Part shown: one piece after another, positions 1-19,880 of the stretch | Layout: every line of letters begins with the position of its first letter | Numbering within the stretch: position 1 is the stretch's first letter | Notes under the pieces: model-generated | Databases searched by the model: none | The model's input: the letters and a program-made list of their open reading frames with translations, nothing else | What the model was told of the DNA's origin: nothing | Made by a program: the position numbers and the translations under genes | Assembly (NCBI GenBank): GCA_004524445.1 | Contig: SDNP01000003.1 | Location: 32,001 to 96,000 of the forward strand | Length of the DNA: 64,000 nucleotides | DNA from: Candidatus Thorarchaeota archaeon | GTDB taxonomy: Archaea; Asgardarchaeota; Thorarchaeia; Thorarchaeales; Thorarchaeaceae | Direction of reading: 5' to 3'

Positions 1-511
1 CTCTCATGGCCTCATTTAATTCTTCTGAGGTCACCTCAGCTTCGGTTGTGGAATCGAAAGCTTCGCCCGCAATGCCGCTCTCAATTTCAAACTCCTCCAG
101 ACGCATGGCGATCTCGTCTGCATTTTCGATTACTTTGGATGTATCCGTGGCATCTCCGAGAAGACCCAATATATCTGCTACGTCATCAAGAGCTTTAGAT
201 GCCTTTGCAGTGGTTTGTGCTCGAGTTACATGAGCTAATATCTTCAAGATTTGAAGACGCGACTTGTCAATTGAAAGAGCGAAACGTCTGAACCTCACCA
301 TTTCTTGTGCATAGGTTCGAAATGCTTCCGTGTTTCCGTTCTTTCGTGCCTCGATTGCTCGCGCCTTCGTATCTCGTTCTTCCTTTTCCAACTTGTTTCT
401 CTGTCGTTCAAGCTGCTTTGATAGAACGCGAAGCTGACTCGTAACTTCGTTGATATCAGGCTTCTTTCGTCCCCATGAGAAGGCTTTCTTGAAGATACCC
501 AATCTGTTCAT
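1..511 (-). CDS. ESCRT-III protein, Vps2/24/46 (Snf7-family); 3' end runs off the window
   Basis: Not in the ORF track because it has no stop inside the window. Manual translation from ATG 511 (or TTG 502): MNRLGIFKKAFSWGRKKPDINEVTSQLRVLSKQLERQRNKLEKEERDTKARAIEARKNGNTEAFRTYAQEMVRFRR...RLEEFEIESGIAGEAFDS. Basic helical hairpin followed by an acidic region; divergent from vps4. Confidence 0.9.
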   Translation of the reverse strand, partial: MNRLGIFKKAFSWGRKKPDINEVTSQLRVLSKQLERQRNKLEKEERDTKARAIEARKNGNTEAFRTYAQEMVRFRRFALSIDKSRLQILKILAHVTRAQTTAKASKALDDVADILGLLGDATDTSKVIENADEIAMRLEEFEIESGIAGEAFDSTTEAEVTSEELNEAMR

Positions 512-702
512 CCTGAAGAAGCAAGATTCTTCTTCAATTTGAATACTAAGGATGCCATTTTAACACTTCGCCGTTATCCAAAAGGCGGCTGTATAAGAAG
601 CGGTAGAGCAACATCTGAAACTAGATTTTTGAAAACTCAGTAGTTTGTGGGCAATACAGAAGCTCTTAACAACCAATACAGCATTTTTCAGACGGGGTAA
701 AA

Positions 703-1926
703 ATGACCGACACGAATGGAACTAGGCTCGATAAAGGCTTAAGAGAATTGCTCGACAGAGCTATCGATCTAGATCAGAGGGGGCTGAAGAAGGAAGCATG
801 CCAAAAATACCTGAAGGCCAGCAAAATTTTGATTAAACTCTCAAATGCAACAAGTCTCCCCTCCGTCCGTAAGCATTACCTCAAACGAGCGCAGGAGTGT
901 GTAGATAGAGTTCGTTATCTATCCGGCATTAGGAAGAAGACTCGAGGACCAGAATTCGGCCTCACAAGGCCAGTCACACCAATCCATGATGATAGCCAAA
1001 AAGGTGAAATGCCAGTTACCAGTCCAACTGAAGAGCAAGACGAAGATGAGATACGACTCAATGAGATGGTTTCTGATACAATTCTTTCCGAGCGCCCTGA
1101 TGTCAAGATGTCAGAAGTTGCAGGACTAAGCGATGCAAAGCAAGCAATCCATGATGCCATTATATCACCCATGAAACACCCGGAGTTCTTCAAAGGTAAG
1201 GCTAGGCAGCCTTGGAAGGGAATTCTGCTCTATGGACCTGCTGGATGTGGGAAGACACTAATCGCCAAAGCGGTTGCAAACGAAGTAAAAGCCACCTTTT
1301 TCAATGTATCAGCAGCGAATATAGTGAGTAAATGGCTAGGCGAGTCTGAGCGATTGGTTAAACACCTCTTCGATTCTGCGCGTAACAACCAACCATCAGT
1401 CATATTCATAGATGAGCTTGATTCTATAGGGGTTTCAAGACGGGGAGAAGATGTTGGAGGGGAACGAAGACTCAAGACACAATTGCTAACGGAGCTTCAA
1501 GGCCTAACAAGCAAGAGTGGCGAAAGAGTCACACTCATTGGGGCAACAAATCTTCCGTGGGACATCGATTTCGCCTTACGGTCCAGGTTTGAAAAGAGAA
1601 TTAATGTTCCACTCCCCGATAAAGCCGCAAGGGTCAGAATTTTCAAAATACATATTGATGACATTGAAGTCGCGCCGGATGTAGACTTCAATGAGCTTGC
1701 TGACTTGACAGAGGGATACAGCGGGAGGGATATCAGCGTGGTATGCAGAGAAGCCGCAATGGAACCTATCAGAGAATTGCAGAGCGATATTTCTCCATCG
1801 GAAAAAGCTTCGTTCAGATTGAGGCCTGTATCAAGATTGGATTTCCTTAATGCGATTGATAATATTCGCCCCGCAACATCCCCTGAAGACATTCGCAGAT
1901 ACAAAGAGTGGGCGGAGGGTTCATAG
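703..1926 (+). CDS. vps4: Vps4-type AAA+ ATPase with N-terminal MIT domain
   Basis: MIT-like N-terminus (LDRAIDLDQRG..EACQKY), PWKGILLYGPAGCGKT, pore loop SKWLGESE, Walker B IFIDELD, ATNLPWDID; ESCRT context. Confidence 0.95.
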   Translation: MTDTNGTRLDKGLRELLDRAIDLDQRGLKKEACQKYLKASKILIKLSNATSLPSVRKHYLKRAQECVDRVRYLSGIRKKTRGPEFGLTRPVTPIHDDSQKGEMPVTSPTEEQDEDEIRLNEMVSDTILSERPDVKMSEVAGLSDAKQAIHDAIISPMKHPEFFKGKARQPWKGILLYGPAGCGKTLIAKAVANEVKATFFNVSAANIVSKWLGESERLVKHLFDSARNNQPSVIFIDELDSIGVSRRGEDVGGERRLKTQLLTELQGLTSKSGERVTLIGATNLPWDIDFALRSRFEKRINVPLPDKAARVRIFKIHIDDIEVAPDVDFNELADLTEGYSGRDISVVCREAAMEPIRELQSDISPSEKASFRLRPVSRLDFLNAIDNIRPATSPEDIRRYKEWAEGS

Positions 1927-1929
1927 TTC

Positions 1930-2646
1930 GTGGGAGTTAGAGAGCGCAAGAAGGAGAAAAAGGAAAGCAAAGAAGAAGCTCGTTCAGAAGAAAAATCAGC
2001 TGAATCAAAAACCGATGAAATAACAGAGCAAGAAGTCCAACCGCTTGAAGGACCCAGTACTACACAGAAAGAAGACAAAACGACGACTGAACCTGAATCA
2101 CGCACTCAGGTCGTTGAAGAAACACCTGCCGAACGAGAGATGCTGTTGCCAACATGGGGCAGTGTAAATGAGTATGAATTGATGTACCATATACCTACTG
2201 GAGAAGACGACCGAGATCTCTGGGCAGATGAATGGGGAGATTTCCTCTTGGAGTGGGCACAAAAGAACACGGCACATAAAATATCACTAGTAACTTTCAT
2301 CACTGAACAACCATTCTCCGATATATTTGGAAAAGTGAAGGCATTCCGTCTGATAGCAGAAAAACTGGTTGACAAAGATGTGGCTGAATGGGTTGGAAGG
2401 AACAAGGGGCAGCTTCGGATTTACTGGAGACCCATAGAAGATTGGGCAGATATCATCTATGCATGGTCTATTGAAACAGGTAAGACTAGGTTGGATGTGA
2501 AGACACTAGTAATCCAAGAAAGCAGCCAGGATTTTGCAAGTCTGCCTGAAGATGAACTCAAAACCATCCTGGGCATTCTGGTGGAACAAGAACTCGCTGA
2601 ATGGGTAGACAAGAAACGAGCGGCAATAAGAATTCGTATTTCTTAG
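1930..2646 (+). CDS. vps25: ESCRT-II subunit Vps25 with charged N-terminal extension
   Basis: Tandem winged-helix pattern WADEWGDFLLEW...IYWRPIEDWADIIYAW; starts 3 nt after vps4. Confidence 0.88.
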   Translation: MGVRERKKEKKESKEEARSEEKSAESKTDEITEQEVQPLEGPSTTQKEDKTTTEPESRTQVVEETPAEREMLLPTWGSVNEYELMYHIPTGEDDRDLWADEWGDFLLEWAQKNTAHKISLVTFITEQPFSDIFGKVKAFRLIAEKLVDKDVAEWVGRNKGQLRIYWRPIEDWADIIYAWSIETGKTRLDVKTLVIQESSQDFASLPEDELKTILGILVEQELAEWVDKKRAAIRIRIS

Positions 2647-2660
2647 GCATAAAGACGGGA

Positions 2661-3464
2661 TTATAAACCATGAGCCGGGCGAGATTCTCGATTGTTTCTA
2701 CGTCTATCTAATATTTCATGATGGTCCTCTTTGTCCGATGCCTTGTGATGTAACCCGGGGAAGTAGTATCTACCGCCGGTACTAAAGCGAATATCAGCGA
2801 CCGCCATTCCGGCATCAACCAAACTCGATAATACTTGACGGGCGTGATCTTCAGACCACTTGAGTTCCATCATTACCTCTTCAACGGAGGTATAGCCCTT
2901 CGTGGCTGCAAGATTGACCACATCAGATTGATCGCCACGTAATTCCAATGGACGAAGCTCGACAACTTTGACGCCTCCCCGAAGTGTTCGTATTCCCGGA
3001 ATCAATCCGTTTTCTGCAACCCTATTGACAGCCTCTATCACATCATTATAGCTAACCGACTTAAACTGCGGCACACGATTAACAACCTCAACAATCAGGT
3101 CTGCAAGACCCATCAATCCTTTTGCCGAGTGTGTCGTGGCAACGTCGAGAACCGCCAATCCAAGATGGTCATAATATTCATCCATTGTGTATCCATCTAA
3201 GACGGGTCTGGCCCTGTTTTGGTAAAATTCGATTAATCCAGCTGCGTCTGGAAATTCATCTAAGATTCTTTGCTGTGCCATGAAGCCACCAACATCAATA
3301 CCCATGCGCCTCATCTCATCCAAATGCCCTTTCACTTCGCTGACTAACGCATCGGACTCCCGCTGGAATGACCTGATATCAACCGCGCCAAGGTCGTACA
3401 TCTTCTTGAGTTGATCTAAGGTAGCTATTGAAGCGTAAAGCTCCTGATGAATATGGTCATGCAT
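2661..3464 (-). CDS. ESCRT-II Vps22/36 (EAP30) protein with N-terminal Vps28-N-like domain
   Basis: C-terminal part YYDHLGLAVLDV..GLMGLADL..VSYNDVIEAV..PLELRGDQ..KGYTSVEEV..LKWSEDHARQVL..GRYYFPGL matches EAP30. Residues ~5-88 resemble the Vps28 N-terminal domain. Confidence 0.88.
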   Translation of the reverse strand: MHDHIHQELYASIATLDQLKKMYDLGAVDIRSFQRESDALVSEVKGHLDEMRRMGIDVGGFMAQQRILDEFPDAAGLIEFYQNRARPVLDGYTMDEYYDHLGLAVLDVATTHSAKGLMGLADLIVEVVNRVPQFKSVSYNDVIEAVNRVAENGLIPGIRTLRGGVKVVELRPLELRGDQSDVVNLAATKGYTSVEEVMMELKWSEDHARQVLSSLVDAGMAVADIRFSTGGRYYFPGLHHKASDKEDHHEILDRRRNNRESRPAHGL

Positions 3465-3650
3465 CGCCAGATATCCCTTCAGACTGATTTCTTGTCTAGT
3501 CTAGACTGCTAAACGAATTTCGTTGCGTGCTCTCTTAAAAGAGAGTATTATTGGGTTCAGGTCCATATTAGCAACATATTCGATTTGAAATATGCCTCTG
3601 AGACCAATTTCCAAAACCAGAAGCTGAATCGTATTGTATTGGCACGTACA

Positions 3651-5012
3651 TCAAGGTGTGATCCTGTCACGGTCTCTAGGCAGCAGACTAGCCTCTCGGA
3701 TGTTCTCTATACCAAGCAACTGCATGGTCAAGCGCTCCACTCCTAGGCCAAGACCGCCATGGGGGGGAGCACCATATTTGAATGGGTCGAGATAGAAAAC
3801 AAATCGGTCAGGATCAAAGCCCTTAGCTTTGAATCTCTCAACAAGTAAATCGTAGAGATGGATTCTCTGTCCGCCCGTGGTGATTTCCATTCCCTTGTAC
3901 GTTAGGTCAAAGCTTTCGGTCATACCTCCGTCAGACATACTTGGCATTGTGTACGCAGGGCGAAGTTCCATAGGATAATGAGTTATGAATACCATGTCGG
4001 CACCGAATTTCTCAGGAAATATATCTGCAAGCATTCGTTCCGATTCTGGGTCTAGGTCATCTTCCAAGGTAATCTCTTTTCCAGCATCTTGTAATAAGCT
4101 GATAACTTCTGCATATTTGATTCTCTTGAAGGGTAGTCTAGGAACATTCAGATCAACCCCCAGAAGTTCCAGCTCCCGACTCGCCTCTTGCTTCGTCTTA
4201 CTAAACGCATGATGGAGCATCTGCTCTTCCATTTTCATCACATCTTCAACTCCACCAATCCATGCCATCTCAAAATCGAAGGAAGTGTACTCATTCATGT
4301 GTCGTGGAGTGTTGTGTTTTTCAGCTCTGAATACAGGTGCAATCTCAAAGACTCTTCCAAACCCGGCCAAGAGCATAAGTTGCTTGTAGAATTGAGGACT
4401 CTGGGCTAGATAGGCTGGCTTTTCAAAATACTTTATTTCAAAGAGGTTTGCTCCACCCTCTGTTGCTGCTGAAACAATTTTGGGAGTATGTATCTCAGTG
4501 AATTCATTCTGTTCAAGAAACTCACGTGCGAATCTGACCAGCGAGTGCTGAATCCGAAATATGGCATTCACTCTTGGTTTTCGGAGGTCTAGGATCCTGT
4601 AGTTCAGTCTCGTGTCCAGGTCTATGTCGACTTTTCCTTCAACTATATCGATAGGAATCGTTTCTGACCAGTTTAATACGCGGATTTCGGATGGAACAAC
4701 TTCAGCACCCGACGGAAGAAAATCTGTCGCAACAACTTCTCCTTTAACGAGCACAGCCGTTTCAGGCTTCAGGTTCTCTGAGATTTCAAAGACTTCTTCA
4801 GGTACCCTCTTTTTCGGGATGGTGATCTGAGTTGTTCCTCGCTCATCACGGAGAATGAGGAATTTTATCTTCCCCTTATCTCTGAGGATATGCACCCAAC
4901 CAACCAAAGTAACCTGTTCGCCAATAAGATCCTTTCCTATTTCATACGAATAGTGGTTTCTTCGATCCTTACCTATGGGGCTTACATCTGCCTGTTTGTA
5001 ATAATCCACCAT
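3651..5012 (-). CDS. aspS: Aspartyl-tRNA synthetase, archaeal type
   Basis: OB-fold GWVHILRDKG, LAQSPQFYKQ, motif 2 FRAEKHNT.RH, motif 3 PPHGGLGLGVERL. Confidence 0.96.
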   Translation of the reverse strand: MVDYYKQADVSPIGKDRRNHYSYEIGKDLIGEQVTLVGWVHILRDKGKIKFLILRDERGTTQITIPKKRVPEEVFEISENLKPETAVLVKGEVVATDFLPSGAEVVPSEIRVLNWSETIPIDIVEGKVDIDLDTRLNYRILDLRKPRVNAIFRIQHSLVRFAREFLEQNEFTEIHTPKIVSAATEGGANLFEIKYFEKPAYLAQSPQFYKQLMLLAGFGRVFEIAPVFRAEKHNTPRHMNEYTSFDFEMAWIGGVEDVMKMEEQMLHHAFSKTKQEASRELELLGVDLNVPRLPFKRIKYAEVISLLQDAGKEITLEDDLDPESERMLADIFPEKFGADMVFITHYPMELRPAYTMPSMSDGGMTESFDLTYKGMEITTGGQRIHLYDLLVERFKAKGFDPDRFVFYLDPFKYGAPPHGGLGLGVERLTMQLLGIENIREASLLPRDRDRITP

Positions 5013-5142
5013 TGAAACGTCCTCGAACAGCTGTTATTTCAAAGCCAGAGGGCTTGGTTATGAGGCTTTTGGAGAGTCCTAGTTGCCACTATTCATATGG
5101 GTATTCGGTTGCTATATCCTTAGAGTTCGGCCTTTGATAAGA

Positions 5143-5379
5143 TTACATTGGGGCAGCAGCTAGCACATAGATCCGTTCGCGAGCATCCGTATCATGTTCC
5201 TCTTCTTCCAGCAGATTCAGCTCTTTCAAACGACTGATGGCATAATTAACAGTTCGTGGAGGAAGAAATGTTCTGGTAATCAGCTGCTGTCTAGAAAGGC
5301 GTCGATTACGCTTTAGAAGAACGTACAAGAATTTCGCAGACGGAGGTAATGCTAAGAATGAGCGCTTGGCAAACGCGAT
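5143..5379 (-). CDS. Small winged-helix (MarR-like) DNA-binding protein; start uncertain
   Basis: The frame extends upstream of the called TTG (5328) to give LPPSAKFLYVLLKR..LSRQQL..LPPRTVNYAISRLKE..DARERIY, typical of archaeal small wHTH proteins. In-frame stop at 5386-5388. Confidence 0.75.
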   Translation of the reverse strand: MAFAKRSFLALPPSAKFLYVLLKRNRRLSRQQLITRTFLPPRTVNYAISRLKELNLLEEEEHDTDARERIYVLAAAPM

Positions 5380-5483
5380 CCCACCTTAGATTTGATGCCA
5401 TAAATATTGTACCTCCATTTTATTGAGTATGATTGGATTAATTGATTAGCAGATAAGCCTTGGCCTTGGAGTAAGGAGAATTT

Positions 5484-7393: not shown

Positions 7394-7402
7394 AATTGGT
7401 AT

Positions 7403-7441: not shown

Positions 7442-7444
7442 GAT

Positions 7445-9249: not shown

Positions 9250-9264
9250 GGTACCAGTCCAAGG

Positions 9265-9842: not shown

Positions 9843-10721
9843 GTGGTCAAGACGCGATATTCCAGTTATGATGATGAACGAAACCATGAGAGACCTGTTA
9901 GACTGGATAGAACTGAAGGAACCGTTGTGATTGAGGGGAGACCCTACCCAGCAAAGGAAGTGGTTGAGGCTCTAGCACAATCAGGATACTCTGATATCCG
10001 ACATGCTGGAGATGAATTAATTCTTGGTCGGAAGAGAATTTCCCCTATCTTCAAGTCACGCCAAGAAAGAGCTATGGCTTCTCTATGTCATGGCAGTCTG
10101 GCATATTGCTGTCCTCTATCAAAGCGATGCATGGAGAGAGACCGCGCTCTAGAAGTATTAGGTTTGACAAAAAGGGATTATGAGGAGTTGAAGGGTAGCT
10201 CACACTATCAATTCCTTGACTCATCTAGGAGTGACAATCTACACGATGGATTATGGAAGAGAACTAGTGATGGGAGAACTGCAAATAGCCCCGCAACGGA
10301 TAGAGGATATGGTTCGGAAGATTATAGGAGGGATTTCGATAAGCTTGATCAAGTTTTTCGCCCAGATGACAGTCACGCAAGTGATTCCTGGAGGAAGGAA
10401 TCGAGACCATCAAGACACAATGAACGTAGTAGGTCGAGTACCGAAGAAAGGTCTGTCAGGTCGGTTTCCAGAATGCATGGAAATGATAGCTTGATGGATG
10501 AGATGAGAGACTCCACTCGAAACATTGATTCGGGAACATCCTGCTCGATAAACAGTGAGCCAAGTGTGGAGGGGCTTGGCGCGCTATTTTCACAAGGAGA
10601 ACTCAGCCCATTCAAAGACAATGCACCAGAAACAACTGAGGAACGTGCCTTTTGCTTTTCCTGTGGAAGGACATTTGAAAAAGGGACAAAGCTATGCCCC
10701 TATTGCGGAACCCGCCAGTGA
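9843..10721 (+). CDS. Hypothetical protein: Cys-rich motif, disordered linker, C-terminal zinc ribbon
   Basis: CHGSLAYCCPLSKRC motif; S/R/D-rich middle; CFSC...CPYC at the C-terminus. Confidence 0.75.
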   Translation: MVKTRYSSYDDERNHERPVRLDRTEGTVVIEGRPYPAKEVVEALAQSGYSDIRHAGDELILGRKRISPIFKSRQERAMASLCHGSLAYCCPLSKRCMERDRALEVLGLTKRDYEELKGSSHYQFLDSSRSDNLHDGLWKRTSDGRTANSPATDRGYGSEDYRRDFDKLDQVFRPDDSHASDSWRKESRPSRHNERSRSSTEERSVRSVSRMHGNDSLMDEMRDSTRNIDSGTSCSINSEPSVEGLGALFSQGELSPFKDNAPETTEERAFCFSCGRTFEKGTKLCPYCGTRQ

Positions 10722-10737
10722 CTTGCGGTATCCTCTT

Positions 10738-11820
10738 CTAGCCACCAATGGCTTCTTCTCGCCGGTCCGAATAATCATCTGGATAGGCAAATGTGCCAGA
10801 TATTCGGTCTATAGCCGCATCCTTGGCCAAATCCTTGAGCTCTCTGACTTCCTCTATTGAATCAATGCCCCAGCGAAATAGTGTTACATCTCCTCCGCGC
10901 CTCTTGAATTCATTTGAGAAATAAAGTGATTCCACTAATTCATCGTATTCTGAACTTTCTTGAGCAGGAAGAATGGGAGACCATGGGTATAGATTGACTA
11001 ACATGCTACCTGTGATGTCAAGTATTCTCCTCCAGTCATAGCCGTACTCATTCTGGGCGTCTTCTGTAAGCCCAGTCATCGGATCCAATAGCATCTCGAT
11101 GCTCAGTTTCAAGGGTTTTGTTCTCTCTGTGCTATCACTAATATCACGAGCCGCTGCCTGCAATTGTTCAATACCTTGATGGACTATCCCGCTTCGCCAT
11201 TCGTGCCATTTTTCGTGATATTCAGGGTTCTCTGTGAGATATTGATGAGTGAGTCTATCAGGTTCCTGATTTACTAGAGGGGCAAAATCATTCCTGCACT
11301 TTTCACAGAAACAAAATCGATCTCGAATGAAGCCCGCACCAAAAACAAAGATTTCATCAACTGGATAATGTCCAATTTCCGCTACGATTTCGGACGCATA
11401 CTGCCAAAATTCTGGAGAATTGGGACATATTTGATGGTCCATCGCTTTACCTTTATCATTCTTACTTTGATAATTGGGATCTTTTGCGAACAGCCTATCC
11501 GTATACAAATCCATTCCAACTGCTGTATTTATCTCCAATGCGTTGGCAATCTCAACCCATTCCTCAAAGAAGCCCACGTTTTCTTCGTGAACGGGAGCCG
11601 TCTTGCTTTGATAATTGGCGTGACCATCGGAGCCCTTTCCATATATCCCTACGCTCTCCATGTATGATGCATAGGTGGACAAAAATTCCTTTGCAGACGT
11701 TTCAATGTCTTCAGGTTTAAGAAGAATTACCATCTTCTGCATAAACAGTTCGCGGTAGTTGACCTTCATCATTGGGAGCCCCACTGTGGAACATAATACT
11801 AGCTCAGAGCTGGGTTGCAT
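10738..11820 (-). CDS. Glycoside-hydrolase-like TIM-barrel protein (GHL10/DUF4015-like), divergent
   Basis: ICPNSPE..VAEI..YPVDEI..CFCEKCR..WHEWR pattern. Confidence 0.55.
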   Translation of the reverse strand: MQPSSELVLCSTVGLPMMKVNYRELFMQKMVILLKPEDIETSAKEFLSTYASYMESVGIYGKGSDGHANYQSKTAPVHEENVGFFEEWVEIANALEINTAVGMDLYTDRLFAKDPNYQSKNDKGKAMDHQICPNSPEFWQYASEIVAEIGHYPVDEIFVFGAGFIRDRFCFCEKCRNDFAPLVNQEPDRLTHQYLTENPEYHEKWHEWRSGIVHQGIEQLQAAARDISDSTERTKPLKLSIEMLLDPMTGLTEDAQNEYGYDWRRILDITGSMLVNLYPWSPILPAQESSEYDELVESLYFSNEFKRRGGDVTLFRWGIDSIEEVRELKDLAKDAAIDRISGTFAYPDDYSDRREEAIGG

Positions 11821-11883
11821 CTAGTCAAGGGCTCGCTAAAAGGATTTCTTCTTCAAACCCCCTCACGAAAAAACCGCTGTTCA

Positions 11884-14800
11884 CTAGAAGAAATCATCCA
11901 ATGTTGTGATTCCTAAGAGGCTATCAAAATCAATTCCCACTGATTCCAGGACCTGCTCGAAGACTGATCTCAATGTATCTATATACTTCTGCTTATCCAA
12001 CCAGTATTCTCCCTGATTTGCGAGCACTACAGGTAGCACCCCGTCCGCATCCTTTGTCTTAATATATTCAATGATAGTCCCACCCTCAACTTCATGCCCA
12101 GCGTCTTCCATCATCATTGCTGCTCTCACATGTTGTGGCAGGGTAGTACCATATTGAGAGATGGGTTTTGTCATCTGGATACGGAACGCAAGTTCTTCAG
12201 GGGAATAGGGTTCAGCTTTCCCCTCAAGTCTATCGATTACGCAGTTCACGATTTCGCGGATTTCATCCTTAGCTACTTCAAATCCTTCAGGGCTGTCCAC
12301 ATGAGCTAAGACTTCGAGCATTTCCCGGAATGCTTCTTGAATGAATTCGGGCGTGTTCCTCTTTTTGCCACTGAGCCCCTTTACCTCAACATAACCAGAA
12401 TCATAGACCCCAATGTAGTTCTTTTTGCGATCTGAGAGAGCAACATACTTGTATGTCTTCTCCACTTCCAGGTCTATCTCCAGTTCTTGTCGTGACCATT
12501 CAATGAGCTGTCGTTGTTGTTCTTCTGTTGGACTATCAAGGAAAACTGAGTCAGTGTCCCCATACAATACTCGCACGCCCATGGACTCGGCCTTCTCTTT
12601 GGTGCGAATAATTGCGTCTCGGCCATAGGCAGTAACGCTCTCGGCAGCGGGCATACAGAACAGCTCGAAGTGTTGGGCCCCTGTCACACCATAGCTATTG
12701 TGAACTACAATTCCGTTGGTCGATACAAACAACCCATTCCCAGTTTCCAAGTCGTAGGTTTGTTCAGAATGGTCACTCTTTTGTATCGAGCGAATCCTTA
12801 CTGCATGTGTGCCATTAAAATCAGTCAATCCTCGGCCCGTTCGCCGATACTTTAGCCCTTTGCTTTCCACAATACGATACATTGATTCTTCGCGATGAAC
12901 AGATGCATGTTTCCCAAGTGCGGCTAACAGGTAAAGAATGTCATAAGCTAGTTCTTTGCTCGATGTCGAATATCGCCTAGCACCGCGAGTATTGATATTC
13001 CCATCGCCCTTGAAGAACGAATCTAGAACAATGCCTGCTCTCTCCTTATCAAGGAGGTGAATTGGGATAGATTTGTTCCGGGACCTGTTACCACAGAGGG
13101 ATTCCATGACTGCTGCAAGTATTTTCGAGTGAATGACATGGTCCTTCTCCGAATATATCGCAAAGGGCAGTTCCATCCGTTGTAAGAGGGTTCCGATCTG
13201 CTTGAAATAAGTAGGATTGACTTCCTGATACTGTGAAATCGACACCCGATTAACGCCCACATGTCCTTCAGAAAGATACCAGCCCATAAATGCGAAGAAA
13301 TCTTCATCAAGCTTAATTCTGATGTTTTCCCATTTGCCGGCCTCACGCCATCTACCACTGCTTTCAATCAGTTTTAGGTAGAAAGGTGGTGCACCTGATT
13401 CGTGTTCTCTAATCATATTCTTGGCTTCTGCGGATAGGTCATTCCATCGTGCGCGATACCACCTGCTAGCCTTTGAATATCTGAATTCTTCGTTAATTAG
13501 TGAAATCAGAGGGTTCTCTGTTCGTTGGGAACGTCGATACGAGAACTTTGTGTAGTCTTTTCTTCTTATTCCGACATGAATGGATTCCTCAGGGATGACG
13601 TCCGGAATGAATAATGTTTCAGGAGGTCTTGGTGAAAGCGGAGTCTGCTCCAGCATGAGGAGATTATCGTCTATCCGGAGATCTTCGGCCGCAACATACC
13701 GGATTGAGAGAGGCTTCTTGGCAATTGCCTTTCGGTTCTTCCGTGTGTTTTTGGGAAGGAGTTTCGGCAAGACATGGTTGACCGTGCATCGGATAGTGCG
13801 TCCGTCTCGGAGGCAGATGTTGAGAATTGATGCGGGTCCATTCTTCCGAAATCCGACAATAGGAACGAATACTGGTTTTCCAAAGGATGAAGATTCCCAT
13901 TCATTATCAATGCTTAGAATCTCAAGATTGCGCCATTCATCTTCTAAGCTGCCAATAGGTTTCTTCGATACAAGACCTTGGGAATCCCGGACCACTACTT
14001 CTTCGTTGAAAGGAAGACAGGCATTAACGAACACCTTAAGCGCTTTCTCGACAACTGAGTACCAGTTTCGTAACCCTTGATTTAGATTTGTGTCCTTGCT
14101 CTTTCCCTTAAACCATTTGACTCGGGTATCTCGAAAGAAGCCGATAGTCTGACTAATCATGCCGACATTCTTCTTGCATGTCCAATGATCTGTTTCAGGC
14201 ACTCGATTGTCCTCTGCCTTCTCACAGGATTCATGGGGACAATCAACTGTTTCATAACTGATATTGTGTGTCTTCATTATTGTGGGATAGAGACTGGCAA
14301 AGTCAAGAACTGTGGCTCCAAAATGCACTCCCGCCACTGGCTCAATAACAATAGCACCTTTGAATGCCTTGTCCTTTATCATGGCCTCAGTGTGAGCATC
14401 ACTCGATTTCAGTTCTCGAATCTCGCGTTGTTTCGGAATCAAGGCATTTCGTGAACGATGCTCCTGCCGAAAGAGCGATTGAATCCATGTTGATATTCCA
14501 AAGCGAGTCACATCTTCCATTGATAAGCGGGAAATTCGCATTAGAAGAACGATGAGCCGTAGCAGTAGATTTTCATTGTATTGAGTGACTCTCAGCGTTA
14601 TATTGGAGTCTAGCCAGCAGTAGTGAGCTAGTTCATAATATCCAAGTCTAGAAATCTCGTCGCTTAGCTCAAGTTTGCCTACATTAAGAAGACCTTGCCC
14701 GATGGATTCGAGATTGTTTCGCTCATATGCTCCTGAAAGCGCATACAATCGAACTGAGGGGTTCTTGAGGAACCTGTAGAGGTCAATGTGGATACCACCG

Positions 14801-16023
14801 TCAAGCAGTGCGATGTCCCTGCCTAATCGTATTGGACAATATTTGTCAACATCGATGCCCAGACGTTCTGCACGATTATAAAGATAGGTCAGATCGAAAG
14901 CATCTCCGACGAACGTCAAGACAATCGGATATTTGTCCAGCATTCTGAATGTTTGCATGAGCATTTCTCGTTCGTCTTCGTAAAAGACAACATTCAGTTC
15001 TTCAGGAAACTCTTCATGCTTTTCGCCTTCTTCCAAGTCAGCCCTCTTTAAAACAAAGCACTTGTTCATTCCTTGATTATCGGAGAGTCCTACCGCTGTG
15101 ACTGCCTGCGGAGCCCGATTGGCATCGGGAATTCTATTGCTCTTCTCTGAATAAACTTCTATGTCAACTGCAATTCGTTTGATATCAGGTACTTCCGTGA
15201 AGAACATAGGTGCGTAATTGTCTATCACACCTCCAAAGTATTCAACATCACCAATTGTTTTCTTGAACTCGTCTAAAGTTTCTTGGTCCAGTTGGGGAGG
15301 GCAGGGAACAAGATCTCCATTTACAATCTTGTATCGCATCCCGCATACGAGTTCGCGGTCATAACAGAAGTTGTTATGGTAACGGATATTGGCTTCCCAC
15401 GCATGACTTATGGTTTCACCCGTTGGCCCAGATCTCGTTGTTAAAAGCTCACGAATTGCGCCAGCAGTCCCGCCAATACTCAATGGATCAGTGGCATAAA
15501 TTTTAGTCATCTCGCGTGTTTCATCTCGTAGAAGGTCCTGTACTGTTTCAGATTCTAATGAGACAAAGCCACGATGATGCCGGACCTTCTTTTCAGCAGT
15601 TTGTGGAGGAAGGTCAGTAAGGCAATAAGGTAGATGGCCTGTATTATCATGCCAGAAGTAGATTCTCTCAGTTTCTGGATTGTACAGCCGCGCTATAGCT
15701 TTCTTCTGAGAGCCATCATAGTCCACAGATAATAGGTAGGAGGGGTCCAGATTTTCTGGTTCTTCTCTTAGTCCAGCAATATAATCATTAGCAATGCTTT
15801 CGTCATCTTCGAAAGTCATGCTTTCCGGGTTAATTATTATTGCAGAATTCTCACGGGAAGGGTCTTCTTTTTCCGTTGTTCTCTGTTTTACTGGCTCAGC
15901 TTCCTCAGAGGGCGATTTCGAGCCTGTTTTCCCGTCCTCTTTTGCCTCAGTTTCAATTAACATGAAGTCCTCTAAAGAAGACTGATTGCTTTCGTCATCA
16001 TGTTCGCGATTCAACCGGGGCAC
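11884..16023 (-). CDS. polB1: Family B DNA polymerase, PolB1 type, containing one intein
   Basis: LLSVDYDG..DNTGH.PY (PolB1 N-terminus), ExoI AVDIEV, DFASLYPT, KVFVNA|SYG, YGDTDS, KKNY. Confidence 0.95.
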   Translation of the reverse strand: MPRLNREHDDESNQSSLEDFMLIETEAKEDGKTGSKSPSEEAEPVKQRTTEKEDPSRENSAIIINPESMTFEDDESIANDYIAGLREEPENLDPSYLLSVDYDGSQKKAIARLYNPETERIYFWHDNTGHLPYCLTDLPPQTAEKKVRHHRGFVSLESETVQDLLRDETREMTKIYATDPLSIGGTAGAIRELLTTRSGPTGETISHAWEANIRYHNNFCYDRELVCGMRYKIVNGDLVPCPPQLDQETLDEFKKTIGDVEYFGGVIDNYAPMFFTEVPDIKRIAVDIEVYSEKSNRIPDANRAPQAVTAVGLSDNQGMNKCFVLKRADLEEGEKHEEFPEELNVVFYEDEREMLMQTFRMLDKYPIVLTFVGDAFDLTYLYNRAERLGIDVDKYCPIRLGRDIALLDGGIHIDLYRFLKNPSVRLYALSGAYERNNLESIGQGLLNVGKLELSDEISRLGYYELAHYCWLDSNITLRVTQYNENLLLRLIVLLMRISRLSMEDVTRFGISTWIQSLFRQEHRSRNALIPKQREIRELKSSDAHTEAMIKDKAFKGAIVIEPVAGVHFGATVLDFASLYPTIMKTHNISYETVDCPHESCEKAEDNRVPETDHWTCKKNVGMISQTIGFFRDTRVKWFKGKSKDTNLNQGLRNWYSVVEKALKVFVNACLPFNEEVVVRDSQGLVSKKPIGSLEDEWRNLEILSIDNEWESSSFGKPVFVPIVGFRKNGPASILNICLRDGRTIRCTVNHVLPKLLPKNTRKNRKAIAKKPLSIRYVAAEDLRIDDNLLMLEQTPLSPRPPETLFIPDVIPEESIHVGIRRKDYTKFSYRRSQRTENPLISLINEEFRYSKASRWYRARWNDLSAEAKNMIREHESGAPPFYLKLIESSGRWREAGKWENIRIKLDEDFFAFMGWYLSEGHVGVNRVSISQYQEVNPTYFKQIGTLLQRMELPFAIYSEKDHVIHSKILAAVMESLCGNRSRNKSIPIHLLDKERAGIVLDSFFKGDGNINTRGARRYSTSSKELAYDILYLLAALGKHASVHREESMYRIVESKGLKYRRTGRGLTDFNGTHAVRIRSIQKSDHSEQTYDLETGNGLFVSTNGIVVHNSYGVTGAQHFELFCMPAAESVTAYGRDAIIRTKEKAESMGVRVLYGDTDSVFLDSPTEEQQRQLIEWSRQELEIDLEVEKTYKYVALSDRKKNYIGVYDSGYVEVKGLSGKKRNTPEFIQEAFREMLEVLAHVDSPEGFEVAKDEIREIVNCVIDRLEGKAEPYSPEELAFRIQMTKPISQYGTTLPQHVRAAMMMEDAGHEVEGGTIIEYIKTKDADGVLPVVLANQGEYWLDKQKYIDTLRSVFEQVLESVGIDFDSLLGITTLDDFF
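12697..14019 (-). mobile_element. Intein (441 aa) with LAGLIDADG homing endonuclease in PolB1 motif B
   Basis: Begins CLPFNEEV, block B CTVNH, LAGLIDADG-like FMGWYLSEG and LDSFFKGDG, ends TYDLET..VVHN followed by Ser+1. Removal restores KVFVNASYG. Confidence 0.95.
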
Positions 16024-16122
16024 TCATTTATTCATGCATGGTAGAGTATTGATAAGCACTTCCTATTGGCATGAGAAACTCGCAACGCGTATCTTCATTA
16101 AGCAGGTTTTCATTTCTCAGGT

Positions 16123-16563
16123 ATGCCAACTATCAAGAAAACCCAGACAGACCGAGTAATAGTTGCTAGACTCTTTCCTGGTGACGATATTCTCGAGTCG
16201 CTTGAGCAGATTGCTGCGGATTATGATATTCAGGCAGGCATTCTCAATCTAATTGGAGCCATTGAAGGAGCACATCTCGGTTACTTCAATGTCAAAAAGA
16301 AAGAATACATGGACTTTGAGGTAGATGAGGATCTCGAGGTTGTTTCCTGTATGGGTAACATATCTCGTAATGAAGAAAACGCACCTATTGTTCATGCGCA
16401 TATGGTTGTAGCGGATGAATCGGGAAGGTGCTATGGTGGTCACTTGATGAAGGGTTGCACAGTTTCAGTGACAATTGAGATTTTTATCAACGTTCTGGTG
16501 GGAACACTCACACGCACTGAGGACGAATCTACGGGCTTACATCTACTCAATCTCGAACATTGA
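16123..16563 (+). CDS. PPC/DUF296 domain protein
   Basis: ARLFPGDD, EVVSCMGNI, HAHMVV, GGHL. Confidence 0.9.
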   Translation: MPTIKKTQTDRVIVARLFPGDDILESLEQIAADYDIQAGILNLIGAIEGAHLGYFNVKKKEYMDFEVDEDLEVVSCMGNISRNEENAPIVHAHMVVADESGRCYGGHLMKGCTVSVTIEIFINVLVGTLTRTEDESTGLHLLNLEH

Positions 16564-16984
16564 CATTGCTAAGCTTTTTACCAGTTTCCTCTAGCTGTTC
16601 CCTAGAGGCCATCTCGTCCCGATATCCTTCTGGAAATCGGAAACCAAACTCATCTCCTGCCTTGCGTGGAATGACATGGATGTGCAAATGAGGGATTTCT
16701 TGCCCAGCTTCACTGCCATTTGCGATTGCATTGATTATTCCCGTGGGAGCATACACGCCATGGACTCGCTTTGTAAGCTCACGCAGACGTACTGCCAAGT
16801 GAGAAGCGACCTCTGGATTTACATCTAACATGTTTTCAAAATGATCCTTAGGGATAAGTAGACAATGTCCCTCGTTCACTGGAAAGACATCCATGAATGC
16901 CATACAAACCTCATCTTCAAAAATAACGGAGGCAGGAATTTCGCCACTCACAATCTTGCAAAAGGTGCAATCTTGTTTTTTCAT
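16547..16984 (-). CDS. HIT family hydrolase
   Basis: DCTFCKIVSGEIP, GQEIPHLHIHVIPR. Likely start MKKQ at 16984. Confidence 0.92.
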   Translation of the reverse strand: MKKQDCTFCKIVSGEIPASVIFEDEVCMAFMDVFPVNEGHCLLIPKDHFENMLDVNPEVASHLAVRLRELTKRVHGVYAPTGIINAIANGSEAGQEIPHLHIHVIPRKAGDEFGFRFPEGYRDEMASREQLEETGKKLSNVNVRD

Positions 16985-17093
16985 ATTTTTCTGATTGACT
17001 TTATGCTTTGATAAATTGTTCGAGGGCATCAGGCAATGCCAAAGCGAAAGAGAATAGTAACCTCTCGTCAGCATGTCTCGGATGTTTCTCGCA

Positions 17094-18518
17094 TCAAATA
17101 TCGGGTTTCTCATATCCAATCATTTCTTCCTCAAGATGCAAAGCGATTTTCAAAGCTAAACCCTCTTCAGCGTGCTTGGTGATAACTTGAATACCAATTG
17201 GCAAGCCGTCTGACGATGTGCCACCTCTAAACGTGACGGAAGGAAGACCAACCAGACTGTAGGGATGCGTGTAGCTCAGTAGGTCAAGTGGATTGAATGA
17301 TGAATCACGAGATTCGCCATGTTTGAATGCTGGAGTGGCGGACACGGGACAAATGATAGCATCATATTCATCCATGAAACGAAGGACTTGACTCCTGTAT
17401 GTATCCCACTTTATACTCCAAAAGAAGAACTCGACACCCAACATAGCTTCGTTACCCTTCGATTGTTGAGATTCTTCAAGCCAATCATCAGCCAAGTCAT
17501 ATATCTCATCAGGATAGAGCTCAACCGGCTCCGACCATTCTTGTACTTTCGGTTCAGTGCCATCTTTTATGCCTGAAGAGAATCGATTCAGCCCTCGTTC
17601 CACATTCAGAAATGTCTTCGTGACTGGTGGATACTCCTCTTCCACAACCAAATCTGTTGTAACTAGTAAATCTGCAGCCTCAGAAATGACTCGTTTTATC
17701 TCTGAGTTGGGTTCAACAAAGCCATTCTCTGTGTAATAGGCAATGGTCAAGTTGTTGAGTCTTATAGTATCATGGCTATCGTATTTCATTGGTAGACATC
17801 GAGAGTCCCAGTTGTCTGGCCCCATGATGACTGGAAGAACAAGTGATAGATCCCTGATGGATCGAGCCATAGGTCCGATTCGCGTTGTGTCGAGAAAACC
17901 TAAGTAAGGAGGAATGGTCCCCATTCGAGAGAGCCGACCGAATGTGGGAGCAAGACCGCAAATGCCGCTGTATGATGAAGGCCATAGTATACTTCCTCCG
18001 GTATCTGAGCCAATTCCAAGGAAGGACCCTCCGGCCGCTATTAGGGCAGCTTCCCCTCCACTACTTGAGCCGACAGTCTTCTCAAGATCATAAGGATTAT
18101 TGGTTCGTCCATAGATTTCGTTATTTGTCTCAAACCCTGAACAGAAGGCAGGACAGTTAGTCTTACCAACGATAATTGCGCCCGCATCCTTTAGTCTCTT
18201 GACAACACTTGCATCGGTAGAGGGAATATATCCGCGTCGCTCAGTGATTCCTCCCGTAGTTATCATGCCCTCTACTTCGATATTATCCTTCACTGTGATT
18301 GGCAGGCCAAATAAGGGGCCACCCTTGGAGGGGGCCTCATCCATCTCTTCAGCTTGAGATACGACTTGTTCCTCATTATAGTGGACAAGGGCATTTATTT
18401 TATCATTGACTTGATTTATTCTCTCAAGCAAACCTGTTACTACTTCTTTCACCGAAGTTCTTTCTTGCCGAATTAGACGCACGATTTCATAGGCGGGCAG
18501 GAACGGTAGGTCATCCAT
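17094..18518 (-). CDS. Amidase signature family enzyme
   Basis: GLPITVKD, GKTN, GSSSGGEAA, GSDTGGSI. Confidence 0.92.
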   Translation of the reverse strand: MDDLPFLPAYEIVRLIRQERTSVKEVVTGLLERINQVNDKINALVHYNEEQVVSQAEEMDEAPSKGGPLFGLPITVKDNIEVEGMITTGGITERRGYIPSTDASVVKRLKDAGAIIVGKTNCPAFCSGFETNNEIYGRTNNPYDLEKTVGSSSGGEAALIAAGGSFLGIGSDTGGSILWPSSYSGICGLAPTFGRLSRMGTIPPYLGFLDTTRIGPMARSIRDLSLVLPVIMGPDNWDSRCLPMKYDSHDTIRLNNLTIAYYTENGFVEPNSEIKRVISEAADLLVTTDLVVEEEYPPVTKTFLNVERGLNRFSSGIKDGTEPKVQEWSEPVELYPDEIYDLADDWLEESQQSKGNEAMLGVEFFFWSIKWDTYRSQVLRFMDEYDAIICPVSATPAFKHGESRDSSFNPLDLLSYTHPYSLVGLPSVTFRGGTSSDGLPIGIQVITKHAEEGLALKIALHLEEEMIGYEKPDI

Positions 18519-18707
18519 TCACGACAGGTCTCCATTGGATACGCTTTTCATTAGCGGGTTAACAACACGATATTTGTGTGAGGGGTGTATTCCGCAGTTA
18601 GGTCTTTTGGAACTTCAAGATTCACAATGGGGCAAAGGGCATCCAAGGAAGCCTCATTAGTTCAAATCTTGAGTGACCTTATAACTCAGCACAGCAAGGT
18701 GAGATTA

Positions 18708-19880
18708 TTGAGCGGACGAAGAATGCTCATATACTTTGACCAGACCCAAAATGAGAGGGGTAGACTTGATACAACTTACTCAGAGCTACGCCAACTGCTC
18801 CGAGATAACGACTATGATGTCGAGGCCTACACTGATTTCATGCTCCTTCCAAAAGAAATCAAGTCAGCTGGTATCATGGTATTTGGATGTCCGAACAGCT
18901 CTAAGCTTAGAAAAGCGGAGATTGCAGCACTAAAAGAATTCGTGAAGGAAGGAGGGGGACTCATGCTCCTCTCTCACTCAGGCGGGGACCGGGGACTTAT
19001 GAATAACATGAGCGATGTGTCCAAGCCCTTCGGAATAACTTTCGAAAATACCGCGATTAAAGATGACAAACATAACGATGGGCTGCCTACTATGCCTTTC
19101 ATCAGGGATTTAGAGGATCATGCGATTATGGAAGAAATTGATGAGATTCTGCTTCCATCCGGTTGCACACTGGAGGTGGAGAGCAAGGCAGAAGTCTTAG
19201 CGAAGACGGGAGGAACAGCGGACCCACCCAGCAGACCTGTCATTGCAGTCGCCGAGCATGGGAAGGGTAGAGTGATTTGTATTGGCAGTTATGAAGTCTT
19301 CAGAAGAGGTGGTGGCTTCAAGAAAGAGGGTAACAAAACCTTTGCACTCAATGCATTTTCTTGGCTCAATAGAATGCGGTCCGCGCCTCAAAGAGCAGAA
19401 GATAGGACGAAAAATGATTCACTACAAGAGGACAAAAGAGATTCGGGGAGCGCCGCAGTGTCAGAGGAATTTGAGAATACACTAAGAAGACTGGTGAATG
19501 CAGTATTCGATTTACAGAAGGATATCGAAACTGCCACAGAAAAAGTGGAGCGGGTGGAAAACAATATAGATGCTCTAAGAAATCAGTTTCAAGATTTTGC
19601 ACAAAAAACACAAGACCAGCTGGGCGTGATTATCCCCGCAAAGCAGTTCAAAACTGAAGATGAGAACCGGGCGGCGGACCTAGAAGCCGATATCAAATCA
19701 CTGAATGCAGAATTAAAATCTGTCAAGCAGCTCCAGGATCATATCGAAGATCGACATTCATCAGGGGCAATGCCAAGGGATGCCTACGAAGAACAGGCAG
19801 AAAAATTGGCTGAGCGAGTCAAGTCTCTGGAAAAGAGAACTAAGGAGAAGAAGAAGGAGCTCGAAGACCTAGCCAAGTAG
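18708..19880 (+). CDS. GIFT/DUF4350 (IFT52-like) domain + coiled coil + steadiness-box-like C-terminus
   Basis: IYFDQTQNE..EIAALKEFVKEGGGLMLL..FGITF..GKGRVICIGS..NKTFALNAFSWL, then heptad repeats. Likely TTG start at 18708 after AAGGTGA; no signal peptide. Confidence 0.8.
   Translation: MSGRRMLIYFDQTQNERGRLDTTYSELRQLLRDNDYDVEAYTDFMLLPKEIKSAGIMVFGCPNSSKLRKAEIAALKEFVKEGGGLMLLSHSGGDRGLMNNMSDVSKPFGITFENTAIKDDKHNDGLPTMPFIRDLEDHAIMEEIDEILLPSGCTLEVESKAEVLAKTGGTADPPSRPVIAVAEHGKGRVICIGSYEVFRRGGGFKKEGNKTFALNAFSWLNRMRSAPQRAEDRTKNDSLQEDKRDSGSAAVSEEFENTLRRLVNAVFDLQKDIETATEKVERVENNIDALRNQFQDFAQKTQDQLGVIIPAKQFKTEDENRAADLEADIKSLNAELKSVKQLQDHIEDRHSSGAMPRDAYEEQAEKLAERVKSLEKRTKEKKKELEDLAK

Follow-up and report, generated by a model that had tools for sequence, protein, structure and literature searches.

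In eukaryotic ESCRT-I, Vps23 and Vps37 dock on the Vps28 hairpin, and the C-terminal four-helix bundle of Vps28 binds ESCRT-II and Vps20. The eukaryotic complex is established as three hairpins and a three-helix stalk (PMC11188069). In Asgard archaea, which are reported to be without Vps37 (PMC9192718), Vps22 with a fused steadiness box (SB) was reported, and SB-containing multidomain proteins were proposed as ESCRT-I binders (PMC11188069). An interaction of Loki SB and Vps22 was found by yeast two-hybrid (PMC9192718). The Thorarchaeal and Asgard ESCRT cluster was published by Hatano et al. 2022 (PMC9192718) and Makarova et al. 2024 (PMC10936438), and consists of Znr_CC_PH_SB (cog.011556), ESCRT-III, Vps4, Vps25, and SB-fused Vps22 (cog.002769).

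ESCRT gene cluster

The window, i.e., the whole analyzed stretch of 64,000 nucleotides, comes from a Thorarchaeia MAG that is 90% complete (2.79-Mb assembly). The following ESCRT genes and domains were predicted at its start.

1-511, minus strand: ESCRT-III, Snf7 family (PF03357, E 2.1e-8 and 4.6e-8)
703-1926, plus strand: Vps4 AAA ATPase (MIT, AAA, and Vps4_C domains)
1930-2646, plus strand: Vps25 of ESCRT-II (PF05871, E 4.9e-13)
2661-3464, minus strand: EAP30/Vps22 fusion protein, P0001 (PF04157, E 8.8e-14)
2745-3185, minus strand: Vps22 core of tandem winged helices, P0001 residues 94-240 (PF04157, SNF8, AF2/Foldseek)
3189-3464, minus strand: predicted Vps28 N-terminal headpiece hairpin domain, P0001 residues 1-92 (HMM, hhalign, AF2)

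The complete ESCRT-III gene (L001:17888-18511, 207 aa, PF03357 E 4.6e-8) extends 112 nt outside the window, and a second Snf7 paralogue was found on contig C62. Vps4 was assigned by PF00004 (E 4.6e-41), Vps4_C (E 7.2e-6), and MIT (E 9.7e-6). A further EAP30 match on contig C33 was not a second Vps22, but the winged helix of MCM. Makarova et al. described a steadiness box at the Vps25 N-terminus in some Asgards. In the present Vps25, residues 1 to ~70 are a charged, disordered stretch with little conservation and without likeness in hhalign, and this assignment was rejected.

By gene assignment, the window start falls within the conserved five-gene Thorarchaeal ESCRT cluster, ordered Znr-CC-PH-SB (outside the window), ESCRT-III, Vps4, Vps25, and Vps28N-Vps22. 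The five genes and their order are identical to the published Thor cluster, with no essential difference. The Thor set of Hatano et al., i.e., ThorAB25_08990 (SB), _09020 (Vps25), and _09030 (Vps22), has a matching Vps22 N-terminus and SB protein. The cluster, the steadiness-box-Vps22 fusion, and the loss of ubiquitin in Thorarchaeia are already published.

Vps28 N-terminal domain fused to Vps22

The Vps22 core was aligned with human SNF8 (3cuq_A) at E 9e-16, and its AF2 model (m2c9c5e8be686) matched the same chain in Foldseek (E 1.8e-7). The PF04157 alignment begins at model position 83 in this protein and in most of the listed Thor genomes, and for the majority of the other Asgards its start is position 1-2. 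In the PF04157 match, the canonical N-terminal helical region of Vps22 (EAP30 model positions 1-82) is absent from P0001.

The region found in its place was compared with Vps28 in both directions. An HMM from 32 Thor Vps22 N-termini matched all of the 12 Asgard Vps28 proteins (E 2e-16 to 8.5e-10), and within its own genome it found only itself. The converse HMM of Asgard Vps28-N gave a single match in the genome, the fusion ORF (E 2.1e-13), and hhalign of the two reached 99.3% (P 1e-20). Pfam VPS28 aligned weakly at model positions 3-61 (E 0.14), and in the PDB ranking the yeast Vps28-N chains stood directly below Vps22 (E 0.12). AF2 predicted a hairpin (H2-24/H30-53) with block-mean pLDDT of 86-97. 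Whole-model Foldseek of the fusion and GIFT proteins returned the Vps22 and GIFT cores and did not recover the hairpins. Borderline HMM matches of prefoldin beta and other hairpins of contig C24 to the hairpin models were taken as the noise level.

By these reciprocal profiles, the Vps22 N-terminus is identified as a true Vps28 N-terminal hairpin domain, as originally predicted, and the support for this label is strong. Residues 1-92 are homologous to the Vps28 headpiece domain, with the conserved motif ELYAxIATLDxL...G.vD...Y....L. For the "SB" on Vps22, the comparison adds quantitative proof, at the level of sequence, of its specific identity as the Vps28 N-terminal domain. Unlike in Vps28, the C-terminal four-helix bundle is missing in the fusion, and the Vps22 winged helices come straight after the hairpin domain. 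An HMM from Asgard Vps28 C-terminal domains found none in the genome (best E 0.73), which is also new here: the genome, as searched, retains no Vps28 C-terminal domain. A 418-aa protein on contig C1 (L020:7984-9240), whose ~425-aa Thor orthologues match PF03997 weakly, was considered as a hidden Vps28 and rejected (hhalign 0.2% to Asgard Vps28).

Ubiquitin system

Thorarchaeota were reported to be without ubiquitin (PMC9192718). The original prediction had noted missing ubiquitin genes for the window, and the same was found in the whole 2.79-Mb assembly, which showed no match to PF00240 (ubiquitin), PF05743 (UEV), PF00179 (E2), PF03997 (VPS28), or PF09454 (Vps23_core). As positive control, the ubiquitin and E2 searches did match in G042, G038, and G058, which are genomes of other Asgards. 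Neither a UEV-Vps23 nor a full-length Vps28 was found elsewhere in the genome. Ubiquitin, E2, and UEV were also not found in two Thor relatives. An E2-like ORF is present in the sister genome G001, and its counterpart was searched for in the studied genome with no result. Two ThiF-type E1-like genes are encoded on contigs other than that of the window. The label "ubiquitin-independent" fits the genome and the published Thorarchaeota data.

Candidate steadiness-box proteins outside the window

The cluster gene ahead of the window was predicted as follows.

L001:16327-17886, ending 115 nt ahead of window position 1: Znr-CC-PH-SB (Zn ribbons, coiled coil, PH, candidate SB)

The Zn ribbons were recognized by DZR (E 1.2e-4) and B-box (E 2.5e-4). 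The PH domain was matched weakly by bPH_3 (E 1.3e-3), GRAM (E 0.013), and Vps36 GLUE (E 0.026), and the C-terminal hairpin showed hhalign values of 55-73% to Vps23 SB and 72% to Vps28N, each weak individually. With PH and SB evidence of this individually weak kind, the gene is assigned by sequence as a member of asCOG cog.011556. In all 41 Thor genomes it is a neighbour of the cluster, within a few kb of Vps22 wherever both are located on one contig. Hatano et al. 2022 (PMC9192718) labelled its orthologue "SB" in their yeast two-hybrid set of Thor proteins and treated it as the SB of Thor ESCRT-I. Because of this position and this earlier use, Znr-CC-PH-SB would be the better-placed partner, and it is more parsimonious than the GIFT protein described below as the steadiness-box partner of Vps28N-Vps22.

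A conserved hairpin protein of 107 aa on contig C24 is possibly a further steadiness-box protein. It reached 76.6% to the Znr SB in hhalign, and its 34% to Vps23 SB was equalled by the reversed control. One candidate each of steadiness box and Vps28N had been claimed; this is right inside the window, but beyond it Znr-CC-PH-SB lies 115 nt away and the 107-aa protein may be added. The genome would thus hold no fewer than two steadiness-box-like proteins, and perhaps three, versus one Vps28N.

GIFT protein with a Vps23-like tail

A GIFT protein is encoded about 15 kb from the cluster genes. Its gene, like those of ESCRT-III, Vps4, Vps25, and Vps22, was confirmed by Pfam at the position originally given.

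18708-19880, plus strand: GIFT protein, P0003 (PF23355, E 2.8e-17)
18708-19373, plus strand: GIFT domain, IFT52 N-terminal-like, GATase1-like fold, residues 1-222 (PF23355, Foldseek)
19458-19622, plus strand: stalk helix, residues 251-305 (AF2 helix H251-305)
19656-19874, plus strand: C-terminal helical hairpin, residues 317-389, candidate steadiness box (AF2, hhalign)

The PF23355 score was 63 bits, versus a cut-off of 27.2. In the PDB, the family profile matched IFT52 (E 1.2e-14), and the AF2 model matched the IFT52 N-domain (5fmr_A/5fms) with Foldseek E ~1e-16 (5fmr_A 1.4e-16) and TM (by target) of 0.78-0.88; OST48/Wbp1 was second. The fold is shared with the IFT52 N-terminal GIFT domain, OST48/Wbp1, and GldG/DUF4350, of which IFT52 is the closest by sequence and structure, but the central and C-terminal domains of IFT52 are missing. 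Because GIFT domains are common across bacteria and archaea, no special tie to cilia is implied, and a special IFT52 ancestry was rejected.

After a disordered linker (residues 225-250), the stalk helix is very strongly conserved among 120 Thor orthologues, and the tail is conserved to an unusual degree. The hairpin (H317-351/H357-389, pLDDT 81-90) has the turn motif G-x-M-x4-Y-x6-L. It aligned with the SB of Asgard UEV-Vps23 over 48 columns (hhalign 89.7-91.3%, P 1e-6 to 2e-6), and the controls stayed at 0.3-0.5% for reversed profiles and did not exceed 1.9% in 30 column shuffles. The entire tail, stalk and SB, aligned colinearly with the UEV-Vps23 tail over 96-106 columns (~90%, P ~1e-6), with reversed or shuffled controls at 7.5% or lower. 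The profile of the hairpin did not resemble that of the Znr SB (0.2%), and its resemblance to Vps28N was slight (9.6%).

The layout is also that of Vps23/TSG101 and Asgard UEV-Vps23, i.e., globular domain, disordered linker, stalk helix, and C-terminal hairpin, with the shared turn aromatic-x-[SA]-G-x-[ILM]-x4-Y. The signature [YF]-x-[SA]-G-x-[ILM]-x4-Y is retained in Jord, Frey, and Loki-type orthologues. The head differs: Vps23 has a ubiquitin-binding UEV where this protein has the GIFT domain. The likeness is visible only profile versus profile. The Vps23-tail HMM does not recover the GIFT protein, Pfam Vps23_core (PF09454) did not match it, and the GIFT family profile had no match among eukaryotic ESCRT-I chains in the PDB. 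In genome searches with the tail profile, Vps23 was the top match only in G058, and other coiled-coil proteins appeared at comparable E-values in G042, G043, and G038. At the profile-profile level, the evidence for a steadiness box in the tail is good, and the original label survives its reversed and shuffled controls.

The hairpin could instead be a SHOCT-type short C-terminal module whose likeness to Vps23 is the shared turn motif only. The SB profile was matched over 17 columns by an 87-aa SHOCT-like ORF as well (C46:19442-19702), but PF09851 has no match to the GIFT tail (E up to 10) while matching three other ORFs of the genome, and the Vps23 alignment covers 48 to ~100 columns versus 28 positions of the SHOCT model. 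We consider this reading highly improbable.

No literature on GIFT or IFT52 combined with Asgard or ESCRT was found, and the GIFT-stalk-SB family appears to be new as an ESCRT-I-like candidate.

Gene neighbourhood and distribution

Between the cluster and the GIFT gene lies a syntenic block (9843-16023) that is not ESCRT.

9843-10721, plus strand: Zn-ribbon protein
10738-11820, minus strand: uncharacterised protein X, 360 aa
11884-16023, minus strand: PolB with intein

GIFT and Vps22 are 11-16 kb apart in 17 Thor genomes; in three Jordarchaeales genomes the distance is 6.3 kb. The Jordarchaeales genome G042 has the same order, i.e., GIFT, PolB-X, ZnR, and ESCRT-I/II, with matches to X (E 2e-57), ZnR (E 8e-36), and PolB (45% identity). 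The linkage was not seen in Freyarchaeota, Odin, and others.

GIFT-stalk-SB orthologues were found in Jordarchaeales and Freyarchaeota, which own ubiquitin, E2, UEV-Vps23, and full Vps28. Because the family occurs in such Asgards, GIFT does not replace UEV, and the GIFT domain would be a parallel adaptor, not a Thor-specific UEV substitute. Some ESCRT-bearing lineages, e.g., f13 and f22, have no GIFT homologue, so the GIFT protein is not a core component.

It is conceivable that the Vps28N-Vps22 hairpin receives its input from Znr-CC-PH-SB alone. In that case the GIFT protein would have no relation to ESCRT, its stalk and hairpin would form a generic module for oligomerisation, and the 15 kb proximity would be an inherited gene order without functional meaning. 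The invariable place of Znr-CC-PH-SB beside the cluster and its use as the Thor SB agree with this, as do the housekeeping genes of the GIFT-to-Vps22 interval (PolB, AspRS, methyltransferase, and aminotransferase), the wide occurrence of GIFT domains, and the unspecific reverse HMM and whole-genome tail searches. The GIFT proteins of Odin, f5, f10, and f21 also end in other coiled-coil tails. However, a generic module does not agree well with the hairpin and tail alignments and their low controls, and the GIFT hairpin scores above the accepted Znr SB against Vps23 SB. The Vps23-like architecture, the unusually conserved tail, and a GIFT gene near ESCRT-I/II genes in two Asgard classes also argue against it. 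This explanation is unlikely, though it deserves to be kept in view.

Proposed ESCRT-I-like assembly

The original prediction was a route from a non-ubiquitin signal through the GIFT protein and Vps28N-Vps22. Both domain labels survive, the steadiness box as a candidate; the route as drawn left out the cluster-encoded Znr-CC-PH-SB, and GIFT coexists with UEV-Vps23 in other Asgards. In the explanation preferred here, for which the chances appear about even, Vps28N-Vps22 is docked by Znr-CC-PH-SB, and GIFT-stalk-SB serves as second adaptor or co-subunit. Thor Vps22 has lost its own N-terminal helices and carries the Vps28 N-terminal hairpin domain instead. Because Vps22 carries this hairpin, an ESCRT-I headpiece docking site would be placed directly on ESCRT-II. 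Steadiness-box adaptors would dock on it, by analogy with Vps23 and Vps37 on eukaryotic Vps28, and the first choice would be the Znr-CC-PH-SB protein. GIFT-stalk-SB may be a Vps23-like paralogue present in several Asgard classes, its hairpin possibly the third in a Vps23/Vps37/Vps28-like headpiece, and its GIFT domain may bring a putative non-ubiquitin signal. All physical contacts, and any cargo, we infer.

The GIFT protein could also belong to such an assembly without touching Vps28N, its stalk and hairpin pairing with Znr-CC-PH-SB or the 107-aa protein in a Vps37-/Mvb12-like role. The three hairpins and three-helix stalk that eukaryotic ESCRT-I requires, the lack of Vps37 in Asgards, the excess of steadiness-box-like proteins over the single Vps28N, and the coexistence of the Jordarchaeales GIFT protein with UEV-Vps23 and Vps28 are consistent with this arrangement. 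The SB status of the 107-aa protein is, however, moderate, as its Vps23 score does not exceed the reversed control. The arrangement seems improbable.

A more far-reaching reading is conceivable. GIFT-stalk-SB may be an unrecognised Vps23-/Vps37-like ESCRT-I subunit family, which several Asgard classes (Thor, Jord/Frey, and some Loki-type lineages) would have inherited from their ancestors. In Thorarchaeia it would form a three-hairpin headpiece with Znr-CC-PH-SB and the Vps22-borne Vps28N, and a non-ubiquitin signal read by GIFT would be passed to ESCRT-II, ESCRT-III, and Vps4. If this reading is true, ESCRT-I-type adaptors would have been modular, and not bound to ubiquitin, prior to eukaryotes, but it is speculative and rather unlikely. 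The pairing is directly testable in vitro because the proteins are small and soluble.

The Vps28N-Vps22 fusion is one way of shortening the bridge from ESCRT-I to ESCRT-II. The GIFT-stalk-SB protein would lengthen the list by Makarova et al. of steadiness-box multidomain proteins put forward as ESCRT-0-like analogues. For the origin of the ESCRT-ubiquitin coupling, a question of eukaryogenesis, Thorarchaeia are the natural "no ubiquitin" case. A Vps23-like protein with a GIFT head would offer a concrete candidate for a ubiquitin-independent cargo adaptor.

ESCRT genes of the window

The window (C57:32001-96000) lies in a 2.79-Mb assembly of 64 contigs, which is 90% complete. The nearest relatives of the proteins it encodes carry the label Thorarchaeota. 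Five genes had been recognized from the sequence alone, i.e., ESCRT-III, Vps4, Vps25, EAP30/Vps22, and a GIFT-domain protein, and all five were borne out by Pfam and PDB searches. A sixth gene was located at L001, the locus around the window start. It brings the ESCRT cluster to five genes.

L001:16327-17886, plus strand, Znr-CC-PH-SB gene (519-aa ORF), 115 nt before window position 1 and directly upstream of ESCRT-III
2-511 (whole gene L001:17888-18511), minus strand, ESCRT-III
703-1926, plus strand, Vps4
1930-2646, plus strand, Vps25
2661-3464, minus strand, EAP30/Vps22 protein
18708-19880, plus strand, GIFT-domain protein

Between the Vps22 and GIFT genes were AspRS, a methyltransferase, an aminotransferase, small ORFs, a Zn-ribbon protein, a 360-aa protein X, and PolB with an intein. 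PCC, HIT, and amidase genes were also among those separating the ESCRT genes from the GIFT gene. The PolB gene, a family-B DNA polymerase (11884-16023, minus strand), carries a LAGLIDADG intein, i.e., Intein_splicing and LAGLIDADG_3 matches at residues ~728-1109. A 535-aa ORF without a Pfam match adjoins a Rad50-like SMC ATPase with a zinc hook (19900-23638, minus strand), convergent with the GIFT gene.

A second ESCRT-III gene (G000:C62:9231-9881; L116:4231-4881, plus strand; Snf7 E 1.9e-15) was found off the cluster in this genome, solitary among metabolic genes. The first ~70 residues of Vps25 (1930-2140, plus strand) are rich in E, K, T, and S, weakly conserved across Thorarchaeia (Thor) orthologues, and without likeness to a steadiness box (SB).

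Vps28 N-terminal domain on Vps22

The N-terminus of Vps22 is a Vps28 N-terminal domain (Vps28N), as had been proposed. Pfam alone gave only E 0.14 (VPS28 model positions 3-61), and this weak match recurs across Thor Vps22 orthologues. When a profile of 32 Thor Vps22 proteins was searched against PDB, yeast Vps28-N chains ranked right behind Vps22 itself (E 0.12). An HMM of residues 1-92 retrieved all 12 Asgard Vps28 proteins, chosen independently via PF03997, from a 20,000-ORF database (E 2e-16 to 8.5e-10), and its sole match in this genome was the Vps22 protein itself. The converse HMM, of Asgard Vps28 N-termini, matched only the Vps22 ORF in this genome (E 2.1e-13), and hhalign of the two regions gave 99.3%. 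In the AF2 model, a confident hairpin (residues 2-53) is followed by short helices, a low-confidence linker, and winged helices. The EAP30 match starts near model position 83 in Thor, whereas it starts at position 1-2 in most other Asgards. No Vps28 C-terminal bundle was detectable in this genome. In Makarova et al. 2024 (PMC10936438), the equivalent of the Thor protein is the 'Vps22 fused to an SB', and the Thor Vps22 studied by Hatano et al. 2022 (PMC9192718) has the same N-terminus.

Steadiness box-like proteins

The AF2 model of the GIFT protein, built from 59 orthologues, showed a GIFT domain at residues 1-222 (pLDDT about 90) and, after a disordered linker (225-250), a long helix (251-305) that leads to a confident C-terminal hairpin (317-351 and 357-389). 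Among 120 Thor orthologues, the tail is strongly conserved. Ten Asgard UEV-Vps23 proteins supplied the tails for comparison; one of them, from the Jordarchaeales genome G042, was domain-checked here and has UQ_con/UEV and Vps23_core. In profile-profile comparison, the hairpins gave 90-91% (P about 1e-6, 48 columns) and the tails 82-89% over about 100 colinear columns. Reversed profiles gave 0.3-0.5% (hairpin) and at most 7.5% (tail), 30 column shuffles of the hairpin at most 1.9%, and negative controls, i.e., the ESCRT-III hairpin, other coiled coils, and the Vps28 C-terminal domain, at most 1.3%. The positive controls came out as expected, at 95.6% for Vps23 SB against Vps28N and 55-73% for Znr SB against Vps23 SB. 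The SB call on the GIFT tail was supported at the profile-profile level with clean controls, but retrieval was not specific: an HMM of Vps23 tails did not retrieve the GIFT protein, and in three of the four informative genomes, whole-genome searches with the GIFT tail profile brought up other coiled-coil proteins with comparable E-values. GIFT tail and family searches gave no match to Pfam Vps23_core, PDB ESCRT-I chains, or SHOCT. Judged from these profiles, the tail is probably homologous to the Vps23 stalk plus SB.

Two small ORFs of this genome, C46:19442-19702 and C38:62580-63011, had weak SHOCT-model matches below cut-off; the former also matched the SB profile over a short stretch, and the latter likewise the Vps28N profile. 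Because the G-x-I-x4-Y turn motif is common to SHOCT and SB hairpins, short motif matches are unfit as sole evidence.

In the original prediction, the GIFT-stalk-SB adaptor, Vps28N-Vps22, Vps25, ESCRT-III, and Vps4 formed a ubiquitin-independent ESCRT route. The overall observation was confirmed, the Vps28N call was right, and the SB call was probably so, but the Znr-CC-PH-SB protein beside the cluster had been left out. This protein combines a coiled coil with three Zn ribbons and a weak PH/GRAM/GLUE-like domain, and its C-terminal hairpin bears the classic G-R-I-x-P-E-D-F-I-R-R-Y-R-x-L motif. It fits the Znr_CC_PH_SB family, a likely ESCRT-I component according to Makarova et al., and is the protein named 'SB' in the Thor yeast two-hybrid set of Hatano et al. 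2022. The gene was found in 41/41 Thor genomes, and in every case where it and Vps22 were located on one contig, a few kb separated them. For these reasons, we infer that, as a partner for the Vps28N hairpin, this protein is more parsimonious than the GIFT protein.

A 107-aa helical-hairpin protein (G000:C24:86379-86699; L021:6379-6702, plus strand) with a G-N-I-x4-F turn is encoded in 40 of 41 Thor genomes. Profile similarity to Znr SB was 76.6%, and the protein is possibly a free-standing, third SB protein of the genome, with moderate support.

Ubiquitin genes

The lack of ubiquitin genes, first noted for the window, extended to the genome. No ubiquitin, UEV, or E2 gene was found in this 90%-complete genome, and in two Thor relatives no match to ubiquitin or UQ_con passed the Pfam cut-off; identical ubiquitin/E2 queries were positive in three other Asgard genomes. 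The result is in line with Hatano et al. 2022 and the 2023 UEV-Vps23 preprint. Since two ThiF-type E1-like genes are present elsewhere in the genome, SAMP- or Urm1-type tagging is possible.

In a sister genome, a 148-aa E2-like ORF with an HYPY...NGALC motif was located on a 9-kb contig (L123, G001:C42:5266-5709; UQ_con E 3.2e-5, below cut-off). It may be part of a mobile or defence element and has no counterpart in this genome.

Distribution and gene order

GIFT homologues were found in 120/151 sampled Asgard genomes. The ESCRT-bearing lineages f13 and f22 had none. The ESCRT-less lineage f17 had weak GIFT paralogues only. Full-length orthologues with the stalk and a [YF]-x-[SA]-G-x-[ILM]-x4-Y hairpin occurred in Thor (f1, f2), Jordarchaeales (f7), Freyarchaeota (f19), and at least one f9 genome; GIFT proteins of Odin, f5, f10, and f21 have different helical tails. 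Since G042, which encodes the GIFT protein, also has ubiquitin, E2, UEV-Vps23, full Vps28, and canonical Vps22, the GIFT protein is not a Thor-specific UEV replacement.

The GIFT and Vps22 genes were 11-16 kb apart in 17 Thor genomes and 6.3 kb in three Jordarchaeales genomes, and unlinked in Freyarchaeota, Odin, and f5. This linkage argues only weakly for a shared function, because the genes in between are replication genes. Thor (window 9843-16023) and G042 (L053:5088-13286) have a block in common, in the order GIFT, PolB - X - ZnR, ESCRT-I/II genes. It spans two Asgard classes, and neither X, a ~340-aa protein, nor its Zn-ribbon neighbour has an assigned function. The common block suggests that this order is ancestral. 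It also hints at an origin of Vps28N-Vps22 in the joining of neighbouring vps28 and vps22 genes, accompanied by loss of UEV-Vps23 and of the C-terminal domain of Vps28.

The ESCRT cluster, the SB-Vps22 fusion, Znr_CC_PH_SB, and Thor without ubiquitin are already published. The GIFT-stalk-SB family appears to be a new ESCRT-I-like candidate; no mention of it was found in the text or accessible supplements of ESCRT surveys. By homology, the GIFT-stalk-SB protein may be physically linked to Vps28N-Vps22, and this putative link would either compete with or complement the SB protein of the cluster.
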